A stretch of 64,000 bases of DNA from Escherichia phage ECO103 4-12-1: sequence record OR844650. One strand, 5' to 3'. Shown here one piece after another: positions 19,810 through 20,307 of the stretch (positions are counted from its first letter, which is position 1; each line of letters begins with the position of its first letter). The notes beneath the pieces were generated by a model that did not search any database, was not told the DNA's origin, and saw nothing but the letters and a program-made list of their open reading frames with translations. A program made the position numbers and the translations under genes.

Positions 19810-20307
19810 TCAAAATCGATATACATTAATATTATCATCTGTGAAGCAATCATGGTTATGCACATCCATGAAAGTACTAAACACTTTATCATATAAAGTT
19901 GTATGTTCTTCATGAATAGCAGCATCTAGCATGTATTCTCCACCACTACCCATAAAGAAAGTGTAGTCTTCATGTAGATATTCAAGTTTTTTAATAAACT
20001 TTCCTTTAGTTAAAATCATATGAATAACATAATCTTTAGAAAGAAGCACACAATGGCAACTTAACTTTCTGTCAGGTATAACTGGTACTTTATTAATTAA
20101 CCAATCCAGTACTTTATCAATTTCACTTACTGACCCACTAGCACTGAATAAACGGTCATGTACATATAAAGTTTTTTGATTAACAACTCCATATTGATAT
20201 TTTGGTCTTAGTGGGAAAAAACCAAATAAGTTTCGTGGTATAGTTGACGTAACTCTAGAATCGGTAATCAATAAATTTAATCGTTTATCAATATAAACAG
20301 TTGTCAT
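19810..20307 (-). CDS. HslV/proteasome-beta-like Ntn-hydrolase peptidase
   Basis: N-terminal MTT (Thr nucleophile position), GSGG motif (FFMGSGGEYMLDAA). Confidence 0.55.
   Translation of the reverse strand: MTTVYIDKRLNLLITDSRVTSTIPRNLFGFFPLRPKYQYGVVNQKTLYVHDRLFSASGSVSEIDKVLDWLINKVPVIPDRKLSCHCVLLSKDYVIHMILTKGKFIKKLEYLHEDYTFFMGSGGEYMLDAAIHEEHTTLYDKVFSTFMDVHNHDCFTDDNINVYRF

Follow-up and report, generated by a model that had tools for sequence, protein, structure and literature searches.

A divergent, H2-less proteasome/HslV-like Ntn peptidase predicted upstream of the sigma factor gene in a Rak2-like jumbo coliphage

Proteasome homologs of phages and the peptidase gene

Phage-encoded homologs of the proteasome are already known by sequence, as PPH, AAH, CPH and the members of the protein family phrog_1040. 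PPH, for which WP_042125023.1 is the representative accession, was defined by Fuchs, Alva and Lupas (2021) as "the first true viral member" (PMC8665760), and the same study noted AAH and CPH in phages. Among the proteasome homologs, PPH and RPC lack helix H2, while connectase lacks both H1 and H2 (PMC8665760). Connectase is an archaeal protein ligase, monomeric and equipped with a mobile two-helix S3/S4 lid. HslV proper (ClpQ; MEROPS T1B), the peptidase of HslVU, an ATP-dependent protease of bacteria, has both H1 and H2 and is partnered by hslU. [quoted passage not shown] No experimental study of any phage-encoded proteasome homolog was found in the literature, and a large comparative review of the peptidases of jumbo phages made no mention of phage proteasome homologs.

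The window analyzed here, a stretch of 64,000 nucleotides, belongs to a Rak2-like jumbo coliphage of the genus Asteriusvirus, with 99.8% identity to G17 and Sharanji and 99.5% identity to 121Q. A sequence-only reading had proposed that one of its genes encodes an HslV/proteasome-beta-like Ntn peptidase, based on an MTT start and a GSGG motif in an HslV-like context:

19810..20307, minus strand: CDS of the proteasome/HslV-like Ntn peptidase, 165 aa, ATG start, TGA stop

The reading frame and both motifs were borne out by the sequence. The protein begins with MTTVYIDK, and its residues 117-130 are FFMGSGGEYMLDAA, for which the counterpart stretch in E. coli HslV is LIAIGSGGPYAQAAARA (sequence checked against PDB 5ji3/1e94). 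Orthologs of the gene are 121Q gp166, G17_00147, and phAPEC6 gp067c; there are no paralogs within the window.

Members of the family were found by tblastn in 50 phage records, all from large myoviruses (Escherichia, Klebsiella, Salmonella, and Erwinia). When 1.84 billion representative proteins were searched exhaustively with an HMM, only 17 clusters at 50% identity were returned (E ≤ 1e-3), so that the family is, at the least, a subfamily isolated in sequence. Nothing beyond this tiny family was recovered by that search or by a second, word-indexed profile search, and HMMER did not connect the family with PPH or with bacterial HslV.

Profile matches, predicted fold and active site

In PHROGs v4 the 165-aa peptidase matched its own family, phrog_24804, which is labelled 'unknown function', with an E-value of 1.4e-103. 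A weak second match reached an HslV-family profile, phrog_1040 ('peptidase HslV family', E = 1.3e-6), which is kept separate from phrog_24804 by the remote-homology clustering of PHROGs. The match to phrog_1040 was repeated in seven of the nine divergent relatives scanned, with E-values from 8.5e-7 to 6e-14 for several of them (the best from the distant member P0030), and the matches covered the sequence from the N-terminal Thr onward.

The proteasome family of Pfam, PF00227, which had been suggested as a check on the sequence-only reading, gave a different result: the 165-aa peptidase remained below the gathering threshold, and no Pfam family, PF00227 included, matched it at E ≤ 10. P0030 produced a sub-threshold match to PF00227 (E = 0.0013; 18.9 bits, below the cutoff of 22.4). 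None of the NCBIfam families was matched by the 165-aa peptidase, including the HslV models (TIGR03692 / PRK05456), to which one of 16 family members reached an E-value of about 0.06. Sequence searches of the PDB yielded nothing significant, whether the query was the protein alone or a family profile, the profile matches having E-values of about 0.2-0.5. Because the Pfam, NCBIfam and PDB sequence searches returned no significant match, the homology is established through the fold, the PHROG profile, and motif conservation.

Alignment of the family with 80 aligned gammaproteobacterial HslVs by hhalign gave P = 0.0014 over 159 columns, at a low probability of 17%; for the reversed-sequence controls the P-values were 0.08 and 0.32. 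When a single HslV sequence was used, the GSGG region alone was aligned. This last result and the missing Pfam match are what might be seen if the MTT and GSGG motifs were a chance resemblance in an unrelated small protein, but that explanation is refuted by the fold matches, by the model built from 35 sequences, and by conservation of the catalytic set, which leave it a negligible likelihood. The HslV-like motifs are kept across the 35 homologs, whose identities go down to about 18%.

The first AlphaFold2 model, from a 16-sequence alignment, had a pLDDT of 82.9 and was the one used in the fold searches. With a 35-sequence alignment the pLDDT was 94.0 and the pTM 0.84, and the five models (pLDDT 92.7-94.0) shared one topology. 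The four-layer alpha-beta-beta-alpha Ntn sandwich with an S1-S11 beta core, by which the superfamily is recognized, was predicted for the protein. In a Foldseek search of the PDB the top four matches were all HslV (Thermotoga, Staphylococcus, and Trypanosoma; E = 7e-6 to 1e-4), and two methods agreed on HslV as the nearest of the solved folds. At the level of a model, the structure settles the placement of the protein within the proteasome/HslV-superfamily Ntn fold. The family assignment that had been made from the sequence is thus supported by the phrog_1040 match, the predicted fold, and the conserved catalytic set described below.

The family definition of the active site was taken from Fuchs et al. 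2021 (PMC8665760), and conservation was counted in 35 aligned family members with identities to the window protein down to about 18%. The best-conserved positions of the family are those of the proteasome active-site set, namely Thr1, Asp17, Thr21, Lys33, Gly47, Ser129, Asp166, and Ser169. The corresponding codons in the window are:

20302..20304, minus strand: Thr2, predicted N-terminal nucleophile (mature Thr1); MTT in 35/35
20260..20262, minus strand: Asp16 (Asp17 of HslV/proteasome); 35/35, placed on HslV Asp17 by hhalign
20173..20175, minus strand: Lys45 (Lys33); 34/35
20134..20136, minus strand: Gly58 (oxyanion-hole Gly47; Gly45 in HslV); 35/35
19942..19950, minus strand: Gly120-Ser121-Gly122 (G-S129-G motif); G 34/35, S 31/35, G 32/35
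19840..19851, minus strand: Asp153 to Thr156 (Asp166, Ser169); D 34/34, T/S 34/34

M1, T2, and T3 were invariant in all 35 sequences, which have no propeptide, and T2 corresponds to Thr1 of the proteasome. T20, the equivalent of Thr21, was likewise found in 35/35, with the same D+4 spacing as in HslV. The hhalign alignment registered the Thr, Asp, and GSG of the family onto HslV, and a sub-threshold HMM alignment with human PSMB6 placed K45 on Lys33 and G58 on Gly47. In the predicted model, Thr2 lies before strand 1, Asp16 ends strand 2 (residues 12-16), Lys45 directly precedes strand 46-49 in chain order, and Gly58 is the final residue of strand 52-58, ahead of helix H1. The GSG motif lies between strand 116-120 and helix H3 (123-130), and the loop from Asp153 to Thr156 follows helix H4 (135-151), ahead of the last strand. 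The full catalytic set is therefore conserved at places that are equivalent at the level of topology, which supports the correspondence of the catalytic residues in the modeled protein with those of the proteasome and HslV.

The hairpin, helix H2 and the question of an HslU partner

The 165-aa peptidase is not HslV proper, with which it has about 16-19% identity. The predicted structure departs from that of HslV in a hairpin that is the signature insertion of the family:

20185..20256, minus strand: extended beta-hairpin, residues 18-41, tip NLFGFFPL

Both strands of the hairpin (18-27 and 31-41) were predicted with confidence (pLDDT 87-90). From the Asp to the Lys the spacing is 29 in the window protein and 16 in both HslV and the proteasome, a difference of 13 residues, and across the family it ranges from 26 to 40, a variation of up to 14 residues. 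The tip is aromatic and Pro-rich, with NLFGFFPL in the window protein; its longer forms have LPWFFKPK or LPFFFKPK. The site of the hairpin appears to be the S3/S4 insertion point, where connectase has its specificity-conferring lid. The first helix layer was predicted to contain one helix, at residues 60-72, with a Pro-rich loop (73-83) after it; neither AlphaFold2 run showed H2, whereas HslV has H1 and H2. Since H2 is absent and the hairpin is 13 residues longer than the short hairpin of HslV, the assembly state and any ATPase partner are probably unlike those of canonical HslVU.

Compared with PPH by its published description, the peptidase is likewise encoded by a tailed phage, lacks H2, and is of the compact, HslV-like 'group I' type, with neither a propeptide nor the C-terminal helix H5. 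PPH has about 140 residues and no insertions, while the 165 residues found here include the 13-residue hairpin insertion, which largely accounts for the additional length. From connectase the predicted structure differs in the presence of H1 and in an insertion that is a beta-hairpin. The beta subunit of the 20S proteasome, Anbu, and BPH are further removed, as the peptidase is far smaller, is encoded by a phage, and has no propeptide, H2, or C-terminal H5. The Rak2-lineage family is a divergent phage proteasome homolog that, in the predicted models, combines a PPH-like loss of H2 with an extended hairpin.

A search for an ATPase partner bears on the ways in which such a protein might work. 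No HslU-like ORF was found within the 64-kb window, and the sole Walker-A ORF there was rejected as a candidate unfoldase, being a gp44-type clamp loader. There was no ATPase adjoining the peptidase gene at eight family loci. When E. coli HslV and HslU were compared with 50,697 phage records by tblastn, HslU-like genes were present in phages of Erwinia and Pseudomonas and in Lak phages, but the 'Escherichia' records matched numbered only 4, against more than 30 Rak2-type (Asteriusvirus-type) Escherichia records. These counts suggest that the Rak2-type Escherichia lineage does not carry an HslU-like gene. A search for canonical HslV in phages yielded 14 matches, which were rejected as a bridge between the families because they look like bacterial fragments or contaminants. 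Two 179-aa genes that follow an HslU-like ATPase in Erwinia phage Simmy50 were considered as HslV-like partners and rejected on testing, as they are not HslV-like.

The possible partners and modes of action discussed from here on are overlapping sub-hypotheses, and the likelihood given to each is to be read as conditional on the fold assignment. One of them is that the peptidase is a true replacement for HslV, forming a double hexameric ring that docks host HslU and redirects ATP-dependent degradation to substrates chosen by the phage. The finding of HslV as the closest solved fold fits this idea, as does the N-terminus MTT(V/I), which is common to the phage family and host HslV. The window contains no HslU/ClpX-like ATPase and the Escherichia matches to HslU are few, so that any unfoldase would come from the host. 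Against a replacement stands the hairpin, the element that in HslV contacts the adjacent protomer and the HslU tail, which is longer here and differs in length from one family member to another. In addition, H2 is absent, the HslV models of NCBIfam are unmatched, and hslU is not a neighbor at the examined loci, in contrast to its partnership with HslV proper. A replacement of this kind is therefore considered unlikely. The self-compartmentalising protease and the partnership with host HslU suggested by the sequence-only reading were neither supported nor refuted, and the partnership has become less likely given the longer hairpin and the lost H2.

The variability of the hairpin is also relevant to whether the protein is catalytically irrelevant, serving as a decoy to titrate host HslU or some other partner, or persisting as a structural remnant. 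Phages are known to inhibit host proteases, with T4 PinA acting against Lon and lambda cIII against FtsH. Isolated proteasome-type subunits are normally inactive outside the assembled ring (PMC8665760), which would be in keeping with such a role and counts against the predicted activity of the peptidase. However, the top-conserved positions of the family are the catalytic residues, down to about 18% identity, and no part of the protein varies more than the element predicted to contact HslU. This pattern makes a non-catalytic decoy quite improbable, and the conservation of the catalytic residues is as expected under selection on catalysis rather than on binding alone.

Operon, expression and mode of action

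The peptidase gene is the third gene of a four-gene unit that encodes, in order, an 86-aa protein, a 139-aa protein, the peptidase, and a sigma factor, with spacers of 5, 1, and 21 nt. The features of the unit and its surroundings are:

20734..20994, minus strand: first gene of the unit, 86 aa, phrog_26969 (from the ORF list)
20309..20728, minus strand: 139-aa gene, phrog_37211 (unknown function), upstream of the peptidase gene
19789..19809, minus strand: 21-nt spacer containing AGGAG, the Shine-Dalgarno of the sigma gene, read from the sequence
18823..19788, minus strand: phage RNA polymerase sigma factor, 321 aa, GTG start, next gene downstream
18790..18821, minus strand: intrinsic terminator at the end of the operon, immediately past the sigma stop; annotated in G17
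21027..21062, minus strand: weak sigma-70-like promoter, TTTACA-17-TACAAT, 10/12, from a consensus scan only
21355..21383, minus strand: perfect sigma-70 consensus promoter, TTGACA-N17-TATAAT, upstream
22717..22745, minus strand: second perfect sigma-70 consensus promoter, further upstream

The sigma gene matched Pfam Sigma70_r3 (2.2e-9) as well as r2 and r4, and phrog_351 (5e-60), and the gene carries a sigma-factor annotation in G17, 121Q, and phAPEC6. At its upstream end the peptidase gene is tightly joined to the 139-aa gene, the junction being TAA-T-ATG with a 1-nt spacer. The translational adjacency to the sigma gene that had been claimed held only in part: the two genes are adjacent and on the same strand, but they do not overlap, being separated by a 21-nt gap, and the sigma gene has its own AGGAG. 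No terminator was found between them in the window, and they are predicted to be co-transcribed. The terminator that closes the operon, AAAAAAGGUUGGC-AUAA-GCCAACCUUUUUUU, has a dG of -19.5 kcal/mol (z = -5.6), and none of 200 shuffles was as stable.

The weak promoter lies immediately ahead of the four-gene unit and overlaps a terminator-like hairpin. The exact sequence TTGACA-N17-TATAAT occurs six times in the window, always on the minus strand, where 0.07 occurrences would be expected and 0 of 100 shuffles reached six; two of the six sit 1-2.5 kb upstream of the unit. The presence of perfect sigma-70 promoters on this strand makes it likely that the peptidase gene is transcribed early by host RNA polymerase.

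The virion mass-spectrometry table of phAPEC6 does not list the ortholog, gp067c. A role as a prohead protease was rejected, as gp067c is not in the phAPEC6 virion and a separate T4-type prohead protease, gp227c, is encoded there. A non-structural protein is the best-supported reading.

The order of peptidase gene followed by sigma gene was also found in Klebsiella phage RaK2, with a 63-nt gap; in Salmonella phage Munch, in which the peptidase has 30% identity and a terminator is annotated between the genes; and in a metagenomic contig (29% identity), where only that pair was recognizably conserved. In Erwinia phage Hallingskeid two small ORFs separate the genes, and a sigma neighbor was absent at P0022, at P0030, and at the homolog of the 147-kb Stephanstirmvirinae phage 05F01. 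An obligatory coupling of the two genes was downgraded accordingly, since the pair is limited to Rak2-like phages and has these exceptions. The pairing appears to be lineage synteny, possibly functional, and not a rule of the family.

Taken with the fold and the active site, the genomic context favors an early, non-structural N-terminal-Thr peptidase of the proteasome/HslV superfamily that is activated by removal of Met and acts on host or phage proteins, a reading to which we assign a probability of roughly 0.7. Host methionine aminopeptidase would take off Met1 and expose the Thr nucleophile; this removal is to be expected because E. coli HslV also begins with MTT and its crystallized chain starts at the Thr. 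Asp16 and Lys45 would then serve as the partners equivalent to Asp17 and Lys33, with Gly58 as the oxyanion hole and Ser121, Asp153, and Thr156 as active-site support. From this proposed arrangement, the reaction would most likely be peptide-bond cleavage and conceivably transfer. The peptidase would be synthesized early, together with the phage sigma factor, from an operon dependent on host RNA polymerase, and its most likely targets would be host or phage proteins during takeover. The 165-aa protein is probably an active early peptidase, its timing being judged from the promoter consensus.

A rather different mode of action would be that of an ATPase-independent, sequence-specific processing enzyme or transpeptidase, resembling connectase rather than a degradation chamber. 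The hairpin would in that case be a substrate-selecting lid or docking arm, and possible targets would include the co-expressed sigma factor and host sigma or anti-sigma factors. The insertion is an elongated beta-hairpin and not a two-helix lid, H1 is retained, and the best fold match is HslV and not connectase. The sigma adjacency is missing in three family members and interrupted in Hallingskeid, so it may be plain inherited synteny. A connectase-like enzyme is for these reasons regarded as a plausible alternative but not a likely one.

E. coli HslUV degrades sigma-32, SulA, and RcsA, which makes a sigma-related target conceivable. In a more speculative and rather improbable extension, the peptidase would be a self-sufficient 'mini-proteasome', independent of HslU, or a connectase-like enzyme that specifically cleaves or modifies a transcription regulator and so enforces the switch from early to middle transcription. 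The long hairpin with its aromatic tip would either take the place of the ATPase-gated groove or serve as an arm for capturing substrates, and the targets would be host sigma-70, sigma-32, or an anti-sigma factor, or the co-expressed phage sigma factor. If this were true, the peptidase would be the first viral protein of the proteasome family with a defined function, and its quaternary structure would be new.

The N-terminal-Thr peptidase proposed here belongs to a tractable family. Its members occur in E. coli phages that are in culture (121Q, PBECO4, G17, phAPEC6, and Sharanji), the protein is small and soluble with a complete active site, and the host offers a well-studied HslU and hslVU mutants.

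The GenBank entries for the family name the product 'hypothetical protein' in about 48 of the 50 records and HslV in two, and 'HslV' labels are also found in a few jumbo-phage papers. A more fitting name for the gene than either would be "Proteasome/HslV-like Ntn peptidase (divergent, H2-less)".

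Annotation and distribution of the protease family

The naming of the same protease gene in GenBank is inconsistent across records. In PP777464.1 (fEgEco12) and PQ471515.1 (Turkey3) it is called 'ATP-dependent protease subunit HslV' or 'ATP-dependent protease', while in the remaining records, about 48, it is either a 'hypothetical protein' or lacks annotation. The paper describing fEgEco12 does not discuss this gene.

The proteasome-type fold was common to 17 viral proteins matched in BFVD at E ≤ 1e-3, including proteins from Pseudomonas phages Noxifer and PhiPA3 (gp331), Erwinia phage RisingSun, Ralstonia phages RP12 and RSF1, and Vibrio phage USC-1. 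Most of these matches were unnamed proteins encoded by other jumbo phages, some of them nucleus-forming, so jumbo phages may commonly carry orphan proteasome homologs as accessories. The protease family itself extends past jumbo phages and past sigma-factor neighbourhoods, since a distant member, 57% identical to the family protein P0032, was found in Klebsiella phage 05F01 (LC483177.1, 4001-4546), a 147-kb Stephanstirmvirinae phage in which the gene is surrounded by many tiny early-type genes.

In Erwinia phage Simmy50 (KU886223.1), the segment 3001-5812 encodes an HslU-like AAA+ ATPase of 569 aa (gp119), followed by gp120 and gp121, which are 179 aa each and of unknown function. Neither gp120 nor gp121 showed any likeness to the proteasome in PHROGs or Pfam.

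Transcription signals

Six promoters with the exact sigma-70 consensus (TTGACA-N17-TATAAT) were found in the window, all on the minus strand, compared with 0.07 expected; none of 100 shuffled sequences contained six or more.

Exact sigma-70 promoters and terminator
17019-17047, minus strand: sigma-70 promoter
21355-21383, minus strand: sigma-70 promoter
22717-22745, minus strand: sigma-70 promoter
38553-38581, minus strand: sigma-70 promoter
40960-40988, minus strand: sigma-70 promoter
55042-55070, minus strand: sigma-70 promoter
18790-18821, minus strand: strong intrinsic terminator, directly 3' of the sigma-factor stop codon

Six perfect promoters on the same strand suggest that the entire block is an early region transcribed by host RNA polymerase. 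The terminator, which was overlooked by a simple consensus scan, has an A-tract/U-tract arrangement and a predicted folding energy of -19.5 kcal/mol (z = -5.6).

Other genes in the window

Further genes
21380-21805 and 21802-22224, minus strand: pair of overlapping genes lying upstream of the four-gene unit, products of about 140 aa, very hydrophobic
43771-44631, minus strand: C-5 cytosine DNA methyltransferase (PF00145, 7.5e-38)
55074-56210, minus strand: TelA-like toxic-anion-resistance protein (PF05816, 1.8e-37)
60301-61290, minus strand: gp44-type sliding-clamp loader (AAA+/DNA_pol3_delta2)

The products of the two overlapping genes look like multi-pass membrane proteins. The RaK2 gene ORF239, an upstream neighbour of the protease gene in that phage, is annotated 'membrane protein'.
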